From positions 1 to 64,000 of the IMG/VR virus record IMGVR_UViG_3300009496_000005: a stretch of 64,000 nucleotides of DNA; one strand, 5' to 3'. Position numbers and translations under genes: made by a program. The notes beneath the pieces are model-generated. The model ran no database searches and was not told where the DNA came from. It saw only the letters and a list, made by a program, of their open reading frames with translations. This DNA is from a virus. Positions 4,729-28,986 of this stretch are shown piece by piece. Numbering within the stretch: position 1 is the stretch's first letter; the number at the start of each line of letters is the position of its first letter.

Positions 4729-5512
4729 GGAAGACCTAGAACGTAGTCTTATTCAAGCAGAAAGTATACAAAAGTTCGTAACTAACCCAATTAACTACTA
4801 TATCTTTATAAACGAAGCACACGACGTCTGTGAGCGTCTAAGACACCATTTCAACCAGTTCAATTGCACCATTCTTACCAGAGCAGACTTACCTAATTAT
4901 AAGTATCCTGAATACGGTTGGGATAGCCAACAACTTATTAAACTTGCTATGGTTGATTACTTCAAAGAGGATTACTTGATATTAGATAGCAAACTATTCT
5001 TTACTAAATCCACAGATACAAATATGTTTAAAGGACTAGGTGGTAATAGATTAGTGCCAATTGATAGAGATGATATTAAAAAGAGTGTGCAAATATATTC
5101 TAATATTCTAAATAAACCTGAGCCAACGCACTATTTAAGTATGTGGCCTTTCTATATTGACGTAAAAGTATTCGAAAATATTGATATTAATTCACTACAA
5201 TTCGATTTGTTTGGTGCATTTACACCGTTTGAATATGCTTATTATTCTATTTTATGTGGCGAAGAGTATATTAATACCAATATTAATTCCAATGTAAAGG
5301 ACTGTTTAAGAGTCACAATGCAGAAACATTTCGATATAATTGATACATGGCCTGACTACCATTGCATGTTCTTCAAACCAGACCTATTAACCAGAGAACA
5401 AATGGAAATAGCATGTGACTATGTGAATAGTTTAGGAATAAAAGTCCAATTAAAACAAGCAGTTTGCAGAGAGATAGAAACTTTTATCCTAAAACCGGTT
5501 GACAATACATAA
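4703..5512 (+). CDS. DUF6492-like glycosyltransferase-related protein
   Basis: GWDSQQLIKL and YLILDSK motifs. Confidence 0.55.
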   Translation: MNLFTITYEEDLERSLIQAESIQKFVTNPINYYIFINEAHDVCERLRHHFNQFNCTILTRADLPNYKYPEYGWDSQQLIKLAMVDYFKEDYLILDSKLFFTKSTDTNMFKGLGGNRLVPIDRDDIKKSVQIYSNILNKPEPTHYLSMWPFYIDVKVFENIDINSLQFDLFGAFTPFEYAYYSILCGEEYINTNINSNVKDCLRVTMQKHFDIIDTWPDYHCMFFKPDLLTREQMEIACDYVNSLGIKVQLKQAVCREIETFILKPVDNT

Positions 5513-5526
5513 ATTGATGTTATTAT
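5499..5526 (+). promoter_or_regulatory. sigma70-type promoter
   Basis: AAAACCGG-TTGACA-N16-TATTAT. Confidence 0.65.
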
Positions 5527-5597
5527 TATAAAACTGTGAAGATTACCACTAGGTGATCTAAGCAGTATTTTGTTTAATGTTGAAAATAGGAGGTCAT

Positions 5598-5858
5598 ATG
5601 ACTACATCAACAACTACTAAGCAGGACAAAGTCCTAGCAGTTCTTTCAGAAGGAAGAACATTATCAAGTGCTCAAATGAGAGCATTCTTTGGTATTGGTA
5701 ACCCACAAGCAGTAATCCAAGCATTACGTTTTTCAGGTTATCCAATCTACCTAAATACTGTAACTGATACAAAAGGAAGAAGCAGAAACGTTTATCGTTT
5801 AGGCACTCCTTCAAAGGCTGTTATTGCCGCTGGTTACAGAGCATTGGCTACATCGTAA
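5598..5858 (+). CDS. winged helix-turn-helix protein
   Basis: AGGAGG SD; LSSAQMRAFFGIGNPQAVIQALRFSGYPI HTH pattern, YRLG wing. Confidence 0.65.
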   Translation: MTTSTTTKQDKVLAVLSEGRTLSSAQMRAFFGIGNPQAVIQALRFSGYPIYLNTVTDTKGRSRNVYRLGTPSKAVIAAGYRALATS

Positions 5859-5871
5859 GCATTGCTAAACC

Positions 5872-5899
5872 AAAAAAGGCCCTACGGGGCCTTTTTTTT
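5872..5899 (+). terminator. intrinsic terminator (bidirectional-type)
   Basis: A6-GGCCC-TACG-GGGCC-T8. Confidence 0.85.
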
Positions 5900-5937
5900 A
5901 TAATAAATATAAATGCAGGCTAACTACACACAGGAAC

Positions 5938-6891
5938 ATGGACATTAAAGACAGTATTTTAAGATTAAATGCAAGGGGCGGAGACCCTATTGTATTAGAC
6001 AATGACTTAGATGTATTGCTTACGGCCTTAATAGAAAAAGAGGTATATGCAGATAACATAGTTGAACTCAGAGACGGTCTAGTTTCTGATCTAGTAAAAT
6101 ATAAAGACACTTATAATATAGAGACAGTTGTCTTGGGTATGAGTGGCGGCATTGATAGTGCCTTAACTGCCTCATTGTTTAGAGATGCAGGTTATAGAGT
6201 GATAGGTGTTACACTCCCAATTGAACAACACCCAGACGAAACTATGCGAGGCGTTGAAGCCTGTGAGAAATTAGGCATAGAACATCTTCAAGTAGACCTA
6301 ACAAAAGAATTTAAATCGATGTGCGAAGGCATAAGCCATTTGGATTCTAACATCAATAGGTTCAACGATGATGAAGATGAAAAGGATGTTAAGATTAGGA
6401 GAGGCAATATCAAAGCAAGGTTGCGTATGATTACTCTTTATAACTTAGCAAGTTTACACAAAGGATTTGTTGCCAGCACTGATAACTTCAGTGAGTTGGC
6501 GGCAGGCTTCTGGACACTACACGGAGACGTGGGTGATGTTGCACCAATTCAAAGTTTAACTAAGAGTTGGGAAGTGCCAGCAATGGCAGAACTACAAGGT
6601 GTTCCAGAGTCTATAATATTAGCGAAACCAACAGATGGGTTGGGTGTTGCTAATGGTGATGAAGACCAGTTTGGTTGCAGTTACCTTGAGTTTGATATAG
6701 GATTGCTAAGTCGTTGTTACGGTTTAGACTATCAGTCAAACTCAAAACGTATGAAGGATGTTTTCGATATTGTTGATAGTAGAGTTGGGTCTACAGTTTA
6801 CAAACGATTTAATCCTTCGAATTTAAATCACCCAACACAGCCTGATAGGTATGACTTATTAGGAAACTATGACAAAATTTTAAGGAGATAA
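5938..6891 (+). CDS. nadE: NH3-dependent NAD+ synthetase
   Basis: LGMSGGIDSA PP-loop, GNIKARLRM, GFWTLHGD, KPTDGL, DEDQFG motifs; no glutaminase domain. Confidence 0.92.
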   Translation: MDIKDSILRLNARGGDPIVLDNDLDVLLTALIEKEVYADNIVELRDGLVSDLVKYKDTYNIETVVLGMSGGIDSALTASLFRDAGYRVIGVTLPIEQHPDETMRGVEACEKLGIEHLQVDLTKEFKSMCEGISHLDSNINRFNDDEDEKDVKIRRGNIKARLRMITLYNLASLHKGFVASTDNFSELAAGFWTLHGDVGDVAPIQSLTKSWEVPAMAELQGVPESIILAKPTDGLGVANGDEDQFGCSYLEFDIGLLSRCYGLDYQSNSKRMKDVFDIVDSRVGSTVYKRFNPSNLNHPTQPDRYDLLGNYDKILRR

Positions 6892-6894
6892 ACC

Positions 6895-7212
6895 ATGGAA
6901 AATATCATCGGAATTATTGTCTTAGTTGCTGTTGCAGGATTTGTAGCATACAAAGTATTTGGAAACAAAGACTCGGTTGCTCCAGCACCTGTTAAAGCAC
7001 CAACACCAGCACCTGCTCCAAAGGCGGCACCTGTTGTTGAGGCGAAGGCAGAGCCAAAAGCAAAGGCTCCTTCCAAAGCAGAACTAACTAAACTTACTAA
7101 AAAAGCACTTGATGAAAAGGCTTTAGAAGTAGGCATTAAGTTAGATGCTAGGAAAACTAAGGATGCAATGATCAAAGACTTCCAAAAGGAATTCAAAGCA
7201 CAACAGAAGTAG
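6895..7212 (+). CDS. membrane-anchored Ala/Pro/Lys-rich protein with C-terminal Rho-N/HeH-like module
   Basis: N-terminal TM helix, APAP linker, LTKLTKKALDEKALEVGIKLDARKTK. Confidence 0.6.
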   Translation: MENIIGIIVLVAVAGFVAYKVFGNKDSVAPAPVKAPTPAPAPKAAPVVEAKAEPKAKAPSKAELTKLTKKALDEKALEVGIKLDARKTKDAMIKDFQKEFKAQQK

Positions 7213-7227
7213 TCAACTGTTAAACCG

Positions 7228-7256
7228 AAAAAGCACTCCGAAGAGTGCTTTTTTTT
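7228..7256 (+). terminator. intrinsic terminator
   Basis: AAGCACTC-CGAA-GAGTGCTT followed by T-run. Confidence 0.85.
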
Positions 7257-7264
7257 GATAAATA
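7257..7264 (+). promoter_or_regulatory. T4-like late promoter
   Basis: GATAAATA (cf. T4 TATAAATA); recurring motif before genes in this window. Confidence 0.7.
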
Positions 7265-7286
7265 TTAATGTAACGCAAGTTACACT

Positions 7287-7344
7287 CGTTCATTCACTCT
7301 AAATGTAGCAGTGAACGGAAGTAGTCAAGAAGACGAAGGAACGC
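7287..7344 (+). ncRNA. glnA-class glutamine riboswitch aptamer 1
   Basis: CGTTCA-[TTCACT/AGTGAA]-CGGAAGTA-[GTC/GAC]-GAAGGAACGC; P1 CGTTC/GAACG and E-loop sequences match the glnA RNA motif as I recall it. Confidence 0.85.
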
Positions 7345-7349
7345 ATCTT

Positions 7350-7397
7350 CGTTCATCCTTAACAGGACGGAAGTAGGTGATAATACCGAAGGAACGC
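7350..7397 (+). ncRNA. glnA-class glutamine riboswitch aptamer 2 (tandem)
   Basis: CGTTCA-[TCCT/AGGA]-CGGAAGTA-[GGT/ACC]-GAAGGAACGC; same core as copy 1 with different, covarying stems. Confidence 0.85.
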
Positions 7398-7419
7398 ATC
7401 TCATTAAAGGAGATGTTAA

Positions 7420-7584
7420 ATGACTAAGTATCAGGAAACAGCACAACTCAAACGTGCTGTAAGAAGAACACTTAAGAATAAAAAAATTGTAGCAAGCCTA
7501 TATCAATTCCCTCACGTTGAAAAACAAAAGAGAAGTGATAGTGAATTGCCACTGTATATAACAGACAATCCGTTTTATCCTTAA
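7420..7584 (+). CDS. riboswitch-led basic peptide (54 aa, not in ORF track)
   Basis: AAGGAG SD; MTKYQETAQLKRAVRRTLKNKKIVASLYQFPHVEKQKRSDSELPLYITDNPFYP; followed by terminator. Confidence 0.75.
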   Translation: MTKYQETAQLKRAVRRTLKNKKIVASLYQFPHVEKQKRSDSELPLYITDNPFYP

Positions 7585-7590
7585 GGCAAT

Positions 7591-7614
7591 AAAGGGAGCA
7601 TTTGCTCCCTTTTT
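7591..7614. terminator. bidirectional terminator between convergent small ORFs
   Basis: AAAGGGAGCA-TT-TGCTCCCTTTTT. Confidence 0.75.
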
Positions 7615-7628
7615 ATTAGTATTTTTTA

Positions 7629-7760
7629 CTAGAATGCTTTATTGACAACGTTTTCAAAACGTCCTGCCGTCATTATTTCGTCTAGTTTGTTGAAGTAGTC
7701 AGATGCCATGTCGCGTAATGGACGAGTTAATCTGGCTACTATTCCTAATGGATTCGCCAT
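7629..7760 (-). CDS. small protein (43 aa, not in ORF track)
   Basis: CAGGAG SD; MANPLGIVARLTRPLRDMASDYFNKLDEIMTAGRFENVVNKAF; GATAAATA upstream at 7880-7873. Confidence 0.65.
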   Translation of the reverse strand: MANPLGIVARLTRPLRDMASDYFNKLDEIMTAGRFENVVNKAF

Positions 7761-7921
7761 AATATTCTCCTGTAATGTGGTAACCAATCGTATCTAACTG
7801 TTCTAATTACTTTATCACTAAAGTGAACTGCAATTATATTGCAACAATTATGTTACAATTGTGTTACAGTTTTATTTATCATTAACTACTGAGTTATTAA
7901 AAGAGTTGTGAATTCGGATGG

Positions 7922-7950
7922 TTGACTTCAAGATTGTTTGACCTTATAAT
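7922..7950 (+). promoter_or_regulatory. sigma70-type early promoter
   Basis: TTGACT-N17-TATAAT. Confidence 0.75.
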
Positions 7951-7982
7951 ATTTGTATAGGTTAATTTAAGGAGTAATTACT

Positions 7983-9122
7983 ATGACAACACGCGGTATA
8001 TACGCAGACAACTTTAATGCAAAATATAGTTACGATGAAAGTAACTACATATCAATCCCAGAACGATTCGCTGAATTTGTTGATGAAAACAAAATGATAG
8101 AAGTCAAGATGGCATGTAGAGAATTTAAACGAAGAAATCCACAGTTTACATGCTTTCAAGATGTTTTAGATGAACTTGTTATGGCTATTCCTTATGTAGC
8201 AGGACAACTTGTAGTTGATTCTACAATGCAAAGAAATCTTTTAATAGACAAATGTATTGATAGAGTAGATAATTTTATTGCTACTAAAGTTATGCCAATA
8301 CAAACTACACCACACCCAGAAGAAGCAGAAAAAGTTCAATGCGGATGGGATGGGCAACATACTGTAATAAAATTATATATTATATGTGTATATGTATTTG
8401 GAGAAACTTGGGAAGACAAACTGATTCCTATTAACATCTACAAAACAACAAATAAATCTCAAATCAGAGAAAACTTTATTGGACTAAATGGTGAGGATAA
8501 AACTCCACTTGATCCGATTGATATTTGGGAACAAATGATTATGGGTGTATGTGTTGATGGTAGCACAAATCCTATATGGGTTGAAGCATACAATAAGTTT
8601 GAAGTAATTAAAAAATGGAAACTTTTTGTAACACATGAAAAGTTTGGCAATGCACACGAAGTTGGTGCTATATCTAGATTGACTGAGATAGAAAAAGCAA
8701 CACCAGAAGATATCAATTACTTTGGTATATACTGGTCAGCCATTAGGCAGAACAGAAGTGTAGCACCCAAAGAGATCTATATGATGCTTACTTGGATTAT
8801 GTTATGTAGGATTGAAGGAATTGCATTAGACGAAGATTATATGCTAGACCTAGCAGATATGAACACCTCGTTCTTTAGAGCAGACTTTTCACCAAGTGGA
8901 CCATTCTGGGCAAAGGCTGAGTTGGCATATGAAGCCTGGCATGAAGAAAAGTATGGAGACTTTGATGATGCTGATAAGCCAGAACCTAGTATGCAAAAGT
9001 TACCATCACATGGTATTCCGTTCTTTAATGCACAAATTAAAAAGACCCTTAACAGGAAAGTGCCTGCCTCAGGTAATATGGCTAACAATGGATTTAAACC
9101 TAGTGAAGATTACTTATGGTAA
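7983..9122 (+). CDS. ParB/Srx-like N-terminal domain protein
   Basis: MQR...WDGQHT motif; AAGGAG SD. Confidence 0.55.
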   Translation: MTTRGIYADNFNAKYSYDESNYISIPERFAEFVDENKMIEVKMACREFKRRNPQFTCFQDVLDELVMAIPYVAGQLVVDSTMQRNLLIDKCIDRVDNFIATKVMPIQTTPHPEEAEKVQCGWDGQHTVIKLYIICVYVFGETWEDKLIPINIYKTTNKSQIRENFIGLNGEDKTPLDPIDIWEQMIMGVCVDGSTNPIWVEAYNKFEVIKKWKLFVTHEKFGNAHEVGAISRLTEIEKATPEDINYFGIYWSAIRQNRSVAPKEIYMMLTWIMLCRIEGIALDEDYMLDLADMNTSFFRADFSPSGPFWAKAELAYEAWHEEKYGDFDDADKPEPSMQKLPSHGIPFFNAQIKKTLNRKVPASGNMANNGFKPSEDYLW

Positions 9123-9556
9123 GAACGTTATTACAGGACCAACGCAAAAACAAAAGGGACGTCCAAAGAATTATAGAGAATAAAATTCTCTGTGATGTTC
9201 CTGGTTGCGACGAACTTATAAGTCTTTACCGTGGTCCTTATTCAGATACCAAATGTAGAGATCATCAACTGCAAGGTATAGAGTATGGTGGTAATGCTAG
9301 TGCTAATAGGACATATACATATCACAAACTAGATCATTGTGAAGATTGCGGCTGGACACCATACACAGATCCTTACTTCAAACTAGAAGAATTCGAATCA
9401 GAGCATGATATGAAACGTTGTCAAGATAAGATGTTGACAGTAGATCATATTAACGGTAATCATGATGATAATCGTGAGGAGAATTGTCAAACTTTATGCG
9501 ATAGATGTCACAAAAAGAAGTCACATATCAATAAAGACTGGTTGACAAGTTCTTAA
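9116..9556 (+). CDS. HNH endonuclease family protein
   Basis: CEDC...LTVDHINGNHDDN...NCQTLCDRCH. Confidence 0.85.
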   Translation: MVRTLLQDQRKNKRDVQRIIENKILCDVPGCDELISLYRGPYSDTKCRDHQLQGIEYGGNASANRTYTYHKLDHCEDCGWTPYTDPYFKLEEFESEHDMKRCQDKMLTVDHINGNHDDNREENCQTLCDRCHKKKSHINKDWLTSS

Positions 9557-28828: not shown

Positions 28829-28986
28829 CGATTGTTTTATCTGTGTTCCAACTTTTTGTATGGTTGATTATCATATTACATAAAATATTTACTAAAAGTA
28901 AGAGGACCAAAAACAACGCAGTTTATAAGTCAATGTTGATTTAATATGGTAAATGGTTTTGATAAATAGTTGTAACGGAGATTTAT

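Follow-up and report, generated by a model that had tools for sequence, protein, structure and literature searches.

Here we describe a gene cassette of an uncultured marine phage in which two glutamine riboswitch aptamers, arranged in tandem, precede a gene encoding a basic protein of 54 amino acids (aa). The cassette lies in positions 1-64,000 of the IMG/VR record IMGVR_UViG_3300009496_000005 (hereafter the window; coordinates refer to it, on the plus strand unless stated), and it is an insulated, monocistronic unit. Overall, we consider it likely that this is a late cassette that functions as a translational switch turned on by glutamine, yielding a 54-aa protein that would act in trans. 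The phage is of the jumbo type: its family-B DNA polymerase (polB) is 41-46% identical to polB of the jumbo myophages Phosso, Atu_ph07, and 121Q. The record spans 77,148 bp and was estimated by CheckV to be ~21% complete, implying a genome of ~350 kb, and the guanine-cytosine (GC) content is ~35%.

A self-contained cassette recurring in viral contigs

The cassette comprises the elements listed below. Small structures were folded and scored against shuffled controls (z), and those of the unit individually reached z = -4.5 to -5.7, far below the shuffles.

7227-7256, plus strand: intrinsic terminator of the upstream 105-aa gene (12-bp stem, -14.7 kcal/mol, z -5.5)
7257-7264, plus strand: putative T4-type late-promoter motif GATAAATA, predicted transcription start at ~7270
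7269-7284, plus strand: 5'-terminal hairpin (6 bp, GCAA loop, -5.5 kcal/mol, z -4.5)
7285-7347, plus strand: distal glutamine aptamer RF01739 with an extended P2 arm (56.9 bits, model positions 1-53 of 53)
7348-7400, plus strand: proximal glutamine aptamer RF01739 (62.1 bits, model positions 1-53 of 53)
7332-7353, plus strand: inter-aptamer alternative helix GACGAAG/CUUCGUU (strands 7332-7338 and 7347-7353; 7 bp, in the minimum free energy (MFE) folds)
7396-7416, plus strand: expression platform, a hairpin burying the Shine-Dalgarno (SD) sequence (CATCTC 7397-7402 / GAGATG 7410-7415, -8.1 kcal/mol, z -5.7)
7407-7412, plus strand: SD sequence AAGGAG, inside the 7396-7416 hairpin
7420-7584, plus strand: gene for the 54-aa basic protein (11 Lys/Arg)
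7591-7616, plus strand: intrinsic terminator closing the unit (stem 7591-7612 and T-run, -14.3 kcal/mol, z -4.5)

A preliminary description of this DNA had proposed a self-contained unit, and every element it listed was found in its place: the promoter motif at 7257-7264 with a GCAA-loop hairpin at the predicted start, the AAGGAG, the Lys/Arg-rich open reading frame (ORF), and a terminator. The entire arrangement recurs in 33 independent viral contigs, and the layout is therefore far beyond chance.

On its 5' side the cassette is insulated by the terminator of the preceding gene, whose T-run abuts the promoter motif; the same succession of terminator and promoter motif was seen in other related loci (numbered with the prefix L; here L003, L019-L021, L025, and L029). 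On the 3' side, the closing terminator has a symmetric A-run and T-run and is common to a convergent minus-strand gene, and in every related locus the peptide gene is followed by a GC-rich hairpin resembling a terminator, in most cases with a T-tail. The flanking genes vary among contigs, with only a winged-helix gene and a small convergent gene recurring in some loci. Since the promoter motif, riboswitch, and terminator are kept as a unit amid poorly conserved neighbours, the cassette is autonomous.

Two genuine glutamine aptamers

We scanned the whole 64-kb window with Rfam at gathering thresholds. Two matches to RF01739 were the sole hits, both there and in the full 77-kb record, and their scores of 56.9 and 62.1 bits compare with a gathering score of 35 bits. 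Both matches cover the full model, and both copies contain all consensus nucleotides of the core (CGUUCA / CGGAAGUA / GAAGGAACGC). Across 14 related aptamers, double-sided changes were found at 6 of the 12 predicted P2/P3 pairs, as expected of a three-helix junction maintained by compensatory changes; P1 is nearly invariant. The tandem aptamers and covarying P2/P3 stems suggested earlier are thus upheld: these are genuine aptamers of the type-1 glutamine riboswitch (glnA RNA), predicted to respond to L-glutamine.

The association of this riboswitch with the peptide gene is complete. Of the related viral loci, 32 include DNA upstream of the gene, and in every one of them RF01739 stands immediately before it (28 with tandem and 4 with single aptamers); a 33rd locus, L030, ends before the upstream region and was excluded from this count. 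Together with the window, this gives the 33 phage copies counted below, alongside five bacterial copies. The existence of single-aptamer copies indicates that one sensor is enough for the basic function.

How might two sensors in series interact? Both aptamers share the same P1 helix (CGUUC/GAACG), which allows the distal 3' P1 strand to pair with the proximal 5' P1 strand. Folding of one aptamer would free the other, so such strand exchange offers a plausible route to a steeper response. The preliminary description had pointed to a 7-bp helix, GACGAAG/CUUCGUU, that would break both aptamers at once. This helix indeed forms in the minimum-energy fold of the window and is mutually exclusive with P1 of both aptamers, but it is restricted to a sub-clade with a 'catctt' linker (8 of the 29 tandem phage loci, the window included, and the five bacterial copies). 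The remaining tandem loci can form merely a 5-bp GAACG/CGUUC strand-swap hairpin. As a general mechanism, the 7-bp helix is therefore ruled out.

The extended P2 arm of the distal aptamer (7292-7314, UUCAC-UCUAAAUGUAGCA-GUGAA) contains an AUG-UAG start-stop. Its sequence, beyond mere pairing, is conserved between phage and bacterial copies (also in the proximal aptamer of L009 and in L057-L063), and the arm can occupy either aptamer position.

A conserved platform that hides the Shine-Dalgarno sequence

The 3' tail of the proximal aptamer (GCAUC) continues directly into the expression platform, where CATCTC pairs with a GAGATG overlapping AAGGAG. This hairpin, noted in the preliminary description, has an equivalent in all 38 copies (33 phage and 5 bacterial), with variable loops, and no other structure is conserved from the aptamer to the AUG. 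Two loci carry an extra base pair inserted on both strands of the helix, L010 (CAUUUUCC/GGAGAAUG) and L031 (CAAUCU/AGAUUG). A T-run is absent after the hairpin, so that it does not qualify as a terminator.

A precedent for this organization exists in cyanobacteria. In Synechocystis, a single type-1 riboswitch upstream of gifB was shown to activate synthesis of the glutamine synthetase (GS) inactivating factor IF17 as glutamine rises (PMC6212724). Klahn et al. postulate that a conserved C in the aptamer tail and its neighbours pair with the ribosome-binding site (RBS), and that the ligand pulls this C into a long-range pair, melting the helix (PMC6212724). In our cassette, too, the aptamer's 3' tail is predicted to pair with the RBS in a conserved helix, and since this tail-SD hairpin matches the mechanism postulated for gifB, we favour a glutamine-ON, translational reading.

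By this mechanism, in the absence of glutamine, the proximal aptamer tail CAUCUC would pair with GAGAUG and hide the SD sequence, while the two aptamers would exchange P1 strands (GACGAAG/CUUCGUU or GAACG/CGUUC) so that neither is folded. With glutamine bound, P1 would close and the tail C would be recruited into the long-range pair known from the crystal structure, opening the SD hairpin and allowing translation. Strand-exchange coupling between the two aptamers would then sharpen the response. The structure of the glutamine riboswitch aptamer was reportedly described by Ren et al. in 2015.

The opposite polarity (glutamine OFF), or control of transcription or RNA stability in place of translation initiation, is highly unlikely. 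Polarity is read from sequence alone, and aptamers of this class also stand ahead of glnA in marine metagenomes, where one would expect negative control (PMC6212724). However, the tail-SD hairpin, the one structure conserved past the aptamer, competes with the conformation that the tail adopts when ligand is bound, and no terminator-type T-run occurs between the aptamer and the AUG.

A further pairing was seen between UAGUCA in the distal aptamer (7322-7327) and the exactly complementary UGACUA overlapping the start codon (7421-7426); the two pair in the MFE fold. Thr2 uses the codon ACT in 29 of 31 distinct genes, whereas ACA prevails at the other invariant Thr. This pairing may constitute a second lock at the level of the start codon. 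Both strands are invariant, so the pairing shows no covariation. Against such a lock, the 'GUC' of the distal P3 also occurs in cassettes with other genes, and L033 and L034 disrupt the complementarity without compensation.

A small protein with an invariant tail

We next consider the product of the cassette. Sixteen clusters in a set of 5.8 billion proteins are 72-98% identical to the 54-aa peptide, and a 76%-identical peptide is encoded on a 320-kb contig. Among 50%-identity representatives we found eight credible relatives; a ninth match, P0019, looks spurious. Relatives are also encoded in 33 IMG/VR contigs (43-93% identity), which bears out the conservation of the ORF, with the riboswitch kept wherever upstream DNA is present. 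Pairwise dN/dS values are mostly 0.1-0.4, and insertions and deletions are multiples of three. The upstream extension of some automatic gene calls is translated aptamer only. Judged from these comparisons, the 54-codon gene is real and under purifying selection.

The family begins with M-T-K-Y-Q (or M-T-N-Q), followed by a basic helix and a variable linker, and ends in Y-I-T-D-N-P-F/Y-Y-P, invariant in the phage family (YITDNPFYP in the window). Some members have Y-R-G-V/I where the window peptide has Q-F-P-H-V. AlphaFold2 predicts a helix at residues 3-27 (predicted local distance difference test, pLDDT, ~93) and an unstructured tail, and no membrane segment was found. We suggest that the small basic protein acts in trans, with the helix probably serving as a handle and the invariant tail probably docking on a highly conserved host target, most likely in nitrogen assimilation.

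Searches of Pfam, PHROGs, PADLOC, and the ESM Atlas gave no match to the peptide, nor did a PDB profile search (best E = 0.41). A tblastn search of the peptide against 50,697 GenBank phage records returned nothing, and blastn of the 1-kb region was likewise blank. In particular, PF14105 (DUF4278) matched neither the window peptide (E up to 1) nor any of 29 and 8 family members (E up to 10); the positive control, a different riboswitch-led peptide from the bacterial lineage described below (L053), was matched at E = 1e-4.

The final codons and stop of the gene (TAT CCT TAA, 7576-7586) are fixed even synonymously (31/31, 30/31, and 29/31 distinct genes), and a G usually comes next after the stop. 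The pattern suggests a constraint at the RNA level or on the termination context at the Pro-stop end. An arrest or leader peptide, as an invariant C-terminus with Pro-stop might suggest, was ruled out: the terminator lies directly 3' of the gene, with no downstream gene, in both phage and bacteria.

A late-type promoter motif and a 5' hairpin

The motif GATAAATA occurs 12 times in the window against 6.1 expected, a count matched by 1 of 100 shuffles, and copies at 28961 and 36132 stand ahead of a virion structural gene (28987) and a tail-fibre gene (36178), respectively. As in T4-type late promoters, it is a TATAAATA-like -10 element without a -35 element, standing ahead of virion genes. Upstream of the first aptamer, [TG]ATAAATA (TATAAATA or GATAAATA) was found at a distance of 6-24 nt in all 33 phage copies and in none of the 5 bacterial copies. 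These data support, without proving, the assignment of GATAAATA as a T4-type late promoter; late timing and dependence on a late sigma factor (gp55-type) would follow from that assignment.

Between the motif and the first aptamer, 24 of the 33 phage copies have a 5' hairpin, and in these the motif-to-aptamer spacing is 21-24 nt; the hairpin is missing from copies with a spacing of 6-11 nt and from the bacterial copies. Its stems covary (GUAAC/GUUAC, GUAAU/AUUAC, GAGUAA/UUACUC, GUAACA/UGUUAC) and its loops are GCAA, GAAA, CAU, UCU, or GAA. Probably, the hairpin acts as a stabiliser of the transcript's 5' end.

We also compared metatranscriptome contigs from four runs with positions 5500-9500. 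Low-depth pieces of the phage region are present, possibly through DNA carry-over. The RNA libraries were available as assembled contigs only, so that transcript starts, ends, and strand are unreadable. Most of the depth peak at 7242-7509 is due to contigs that match the aptamer core alone and continue into other cassette variants. Such contigs in runs X16, X17, and X19, from three studies, match the window only at 7366-7405, in the aptamer core, and lead into a different variant with an SD followed by an ATGACTA start, at depths up to ~130-260. Related riboswitch-peptide units seem abundant in RNA libraries, although these contigs are no proof of expression.

A chromosomal counterpart in small-genome marine gammaproteobacteria

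A motif scan of one genome per species (185,579 species) returned one cellular match, in the Tara 'uncultured Gammaproteobacteria' metagenome-assembled genome (MAG) CAYFFW01, where it sits at a contig end beside the housekeeping genes pssA and ilvCHI. Relatives of this MAG have genomes of 0.9-1.8 Mb, with a GC content of 29-40% in the loci read. RF01739 scored above the cut-off in 24 of 61 relatives, often in tandem and with at most five copies per genome, and the peptide family was found in 8 of 301. In the loci read, the bacterial cassette occupies one syntenic site, between an oxidoreductase and a 5'-nucleotidase gene. The peptides are 46 aa long, begin with M-T-K-Y, end in Y-V-T-D-N-P-F-Y-P, and are 46% identical to the window peptide.

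The bacterial copies have the tandem leader, the SD hairpin, and the terminator, without [TG]ATAAATA and the 5' hairpin. Their 135-nt leader is ~90% identical to that of the window, loops included, and as close to it as other phage copies are. On this sequence evidence, the phage cassette and the chromosomal cassette of these small-genome marine gammaproteobacteria have a common ancestor, and in the phages the cellular promoter has given way to the late promoter of the phage. In a tree of the proximal aptamer and gene, the bacterial copies form one clade (SH-aLRT 99), so a single transfer suffices. This tree is unrooted and based on ~245 columns; midpoint rooting puts the bacterial copies inside the phage diversity. 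As a host for the phage, these homologues hint at a candidate lineage only. RF01739 has been reported in SAR86 MAGs (PMC12379486), and the carrier lineage may be of the SAR86 type.

We inspected the nitrogen-control genes of the carriers. The sole full-length GS-family protein found in them (464-471 aa; loci L066 / L075, bacterial genome G016) scored 201 bits against 429 for the NCBI GlnA equivalog cut-off, which it does not reach. The adenylyltransferase GlnE was not found in the five carrier genomes searched; GlnD was present in four of the five, and the carriers have two PII genes and AmtB.

Elsewhere in this lineage (L037-L056), RF01739 precedes gltB (L047, L049, L050), a porin-like gene (L044), a 54-aa peptide ending in F-F-P-Y-Y-L (L051, L052), and a YRG-repeat, DUF4278-like peptide (L053). 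In L038-L043 and L045 it precedes a leader with a conserved GTTAAAC hairpin.

Genomic neighbourhood

A winged-helix gene (PF14090, HTH_39) is encoded at 5577-5858 on the plus strand, and its relatives (79-82% identity) lie directly upstream of the cassette in L012, L013, and L016. In the window, a gene for NAD synthase (5938-6891) and one for a 105-aa membrane-anchored protein (6895-7212) lie between the two. On the other side, the small convergent gene that shares the terminator of the cassette (7629-7787, minus strand) is a 52-aa ORF, probably 43 aa from its ATG, without a family match and with its own GATAAATA at 7873-7880 (minus strand). It is kept downstream of the cassette in L003, L005-L007, and L022 (49-70% identity).

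Weighing the reading and the candidate targets

Several observations weigh against a late, glutamine-ON cassette of shared phage and bacterial ancestry. The enrichment of GATAAATA is only about two-fold in an AT-rich window, and the covariation of the SD hairpin comes from two loci, most of its bases being fixed by the aptamer consensus and the SD sequence itself. No relative of known function was detected for the peptide, its family occurs in only 8 of the 301 related bacterial genomes, and the tree in which the bacterial copies form a single clade is unrooted, so that transfer may have run in either direction. The sequences themselves show the identity of the aptamers, the conserved architecture, selection on the coding frame, the cellular homologues, and the promoter swap; the ligand response, ON polarity, late timing, cooperativity, peptide target, and host are points that we infer.

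What the protein does is a separate matter, and the GS/PII-modulator or lysis-timing role put forward in the preliminary description is conjecture. That it is a glutamine-induced small inhibitor of nitrogen assimilation is a reasonable guess, because the carriers have a GS-family enzyme, PII, and AmtB, with no GlnE found. It is possible, although we would not favour it, that the peptide targets another nitrogen-status node (PII/GlnK, AmtB, the glutamate synthase GOGAT, or the translation apparatus) or acts as a lysis-timing factor. The two PII genes, AmtB, and GlnD of the carrier genomes fit the former, as does RF01739 ahead of gltB in the same lineage, and the invariant nine-residue tail suggests docking into a very conserved pocket; for lysis timing, the paper on phage Melnitz speculates on lysis control by its riboswitch (PMC9004378). 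However, the cassette was not beside glnK-amtB in the five bacterial loci read, the partners are purely candidates, and the peptide has no membrane segment.

An unlikely alternative is a functional analogue of the GS-inactivating factors IF7/IF17 that binds and shuts off the host's GS-family enzyme; late use by the phage would stop ATP-costly ammonium assimilation. The riboswitch class and ON logic are those of gifB (PMC6212724), the peptide is small, basic, and largely disordered, and the Y-R-G-V/I of some members recalls the YRG motif of DUF4278. Moreover, the carriers have a GS-family enzyme with GlnE not found in five genomes, and a true DUF4278-like peptide stands behind RF01739 in the same lineage (L053). 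Yet none of the 29 and 8 family members matches PF14105 even at E = 10, YRG is missing from the window peptide, and the family has an invariant Y-I-T-D-N-P-F-Y-P tail, where Klahn et al. mention none for IF17 (PMC6212724). The bacterial GS-family protein also falls below the GlnA equivalog cut-off. A complex prediction of two copies of this enzyme with its cognate peptide (score 0.01, mark 0.32) speaks neither for nor against binding.

That the cassette is a host-derived passenger (moron) of no benefit to the phage is very improbable: its autonomy, with its own promoter and terminators among poorly conserved neighbours, would suit a passenger, but 33 viral contigs have retained it under purifying selection, down to 43% identity, every phage copy has the late motif in place of the cellular promoter, and a 5' hairpin was gained by most of them.

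Relation to known systems

The preliminary description knew of no comparable phage circuit. This holds for the 54-aa peptide alone, since glutamine riboswitches have been reported in phages: in the OM43 phage Melnitz, the Pelagibacter phage Mosig, and pelagimyophage metagenome-assembled viral genomes (PMC9004378), and in T4-like cyanophages such as S-CREM1 (PMC9964418). The Melnitz aptamer is associated with a two-piece transfer-messenger RNA gene (PMC9004378), and tandem glnA RNAs have also been published (Weinberg et al. 2010, PMC2864571). Our cassette resembles these in having RF01739 in marine T4-like phages of streamlined hosts. It differs in that the cyanophage papers name no gene under the phage aptamer, the peptide had no tblastn match in the GenBank phage records, and the present phage is of the jumbo type by polB.

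The cyanobacterial, gifB-based framing given earlier did not survive, as DUF4278 is not matched and the cellular copies are in small marine gammaproteobacterial MAGs. The likeness lies in the design: in Synechocystis gifB, RF01739 occupies the 5' untranslated region of a small basic protein gene and its tail can pair with the RBS, glutamine turning expression on. In contrast, the cassette has two aptamers where gifB has one, occurs in phage and gammaproteobacterial MAGs instead of cyanobacteria, encodes a product with no DUF4278 match and another invariant motif, and has a phage late-type promoter motif where the gifB promoter is NtcA-regulated. With the cassette of the bacterial MAGs it has in common a ~90% identical leader, the SD hairpin, the peptide family, and the terminator; the latter differs by its 46-aa peptide, the lack of late motif and 5' hairpin, and its single chromosomal site.

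In tandem glycine riboswitches, two aptamers for the same ligand stand in series before one expression platform, an arrangement associated with a more digital response and cited for tandem glnA RNAs by Weinberg et al. (PMC2864571). The arrangement here is alike, two aptamers for one ligand preceding one platform, but the fold is another, and the coupling that we propose is an exchange of identical P1 strands, whereas that of the glycine riboswitch involves tertiary contacts.

Our literature search found no paper that deals with this peptide family, with its linkage to the riboswitch in phages and gammaproteobacteria, or with the promoter swap. New here are the promoter-swap count (33/33 vs 0/5), the changes on both strands of the SD helix, the strand-exchange interpretation of the tandem, the single-clade tree, and the GlnE/GlnD inventory.

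A more far-reaching view, which we consider distinctly unlikely, is that abundant bacteria of the ocean that do not photosynthesise (SAR86-type, no GlnE found) regulate nitrogen assimilation through an undescribed, glutamine-gated protein family to which the 54-aa product belongs. This family would parallel the GS-inactivating factors of cyanobacteria without being homologous to them, and giant phages would have captured it and rewired it to their late promoter, using it to reset the nitrogen metabolism of the host once glutamine accumulates. In that case the tandem leader would be a two-input gate, in which the proximal aptamer frees the SD sequence and the distal aptamer (UAGUCA 7322-7327) frees the start-codon region (UGACUA 7421-7426).

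The one job worked out for glutamine riboswitches is the dosing of the GS inhibitor IF17 in cyanobacteria. Here, in giant marine phages and small-genome gammaproteobacteria, the same sensor is connected to an unrelated mini-protein that is strongly conserved. This extends nitrogen signalling by a riboswitch and a small protein beyond cyanobacteria. Being ~350 nt long and self-contained, the unit is directly testable in vitro and in reporters. It also provides a clue to the host of an uncultured jumbo phage, and a concrete case of a phage that takes over a host metabolite sensor and places it under its own late promoter.

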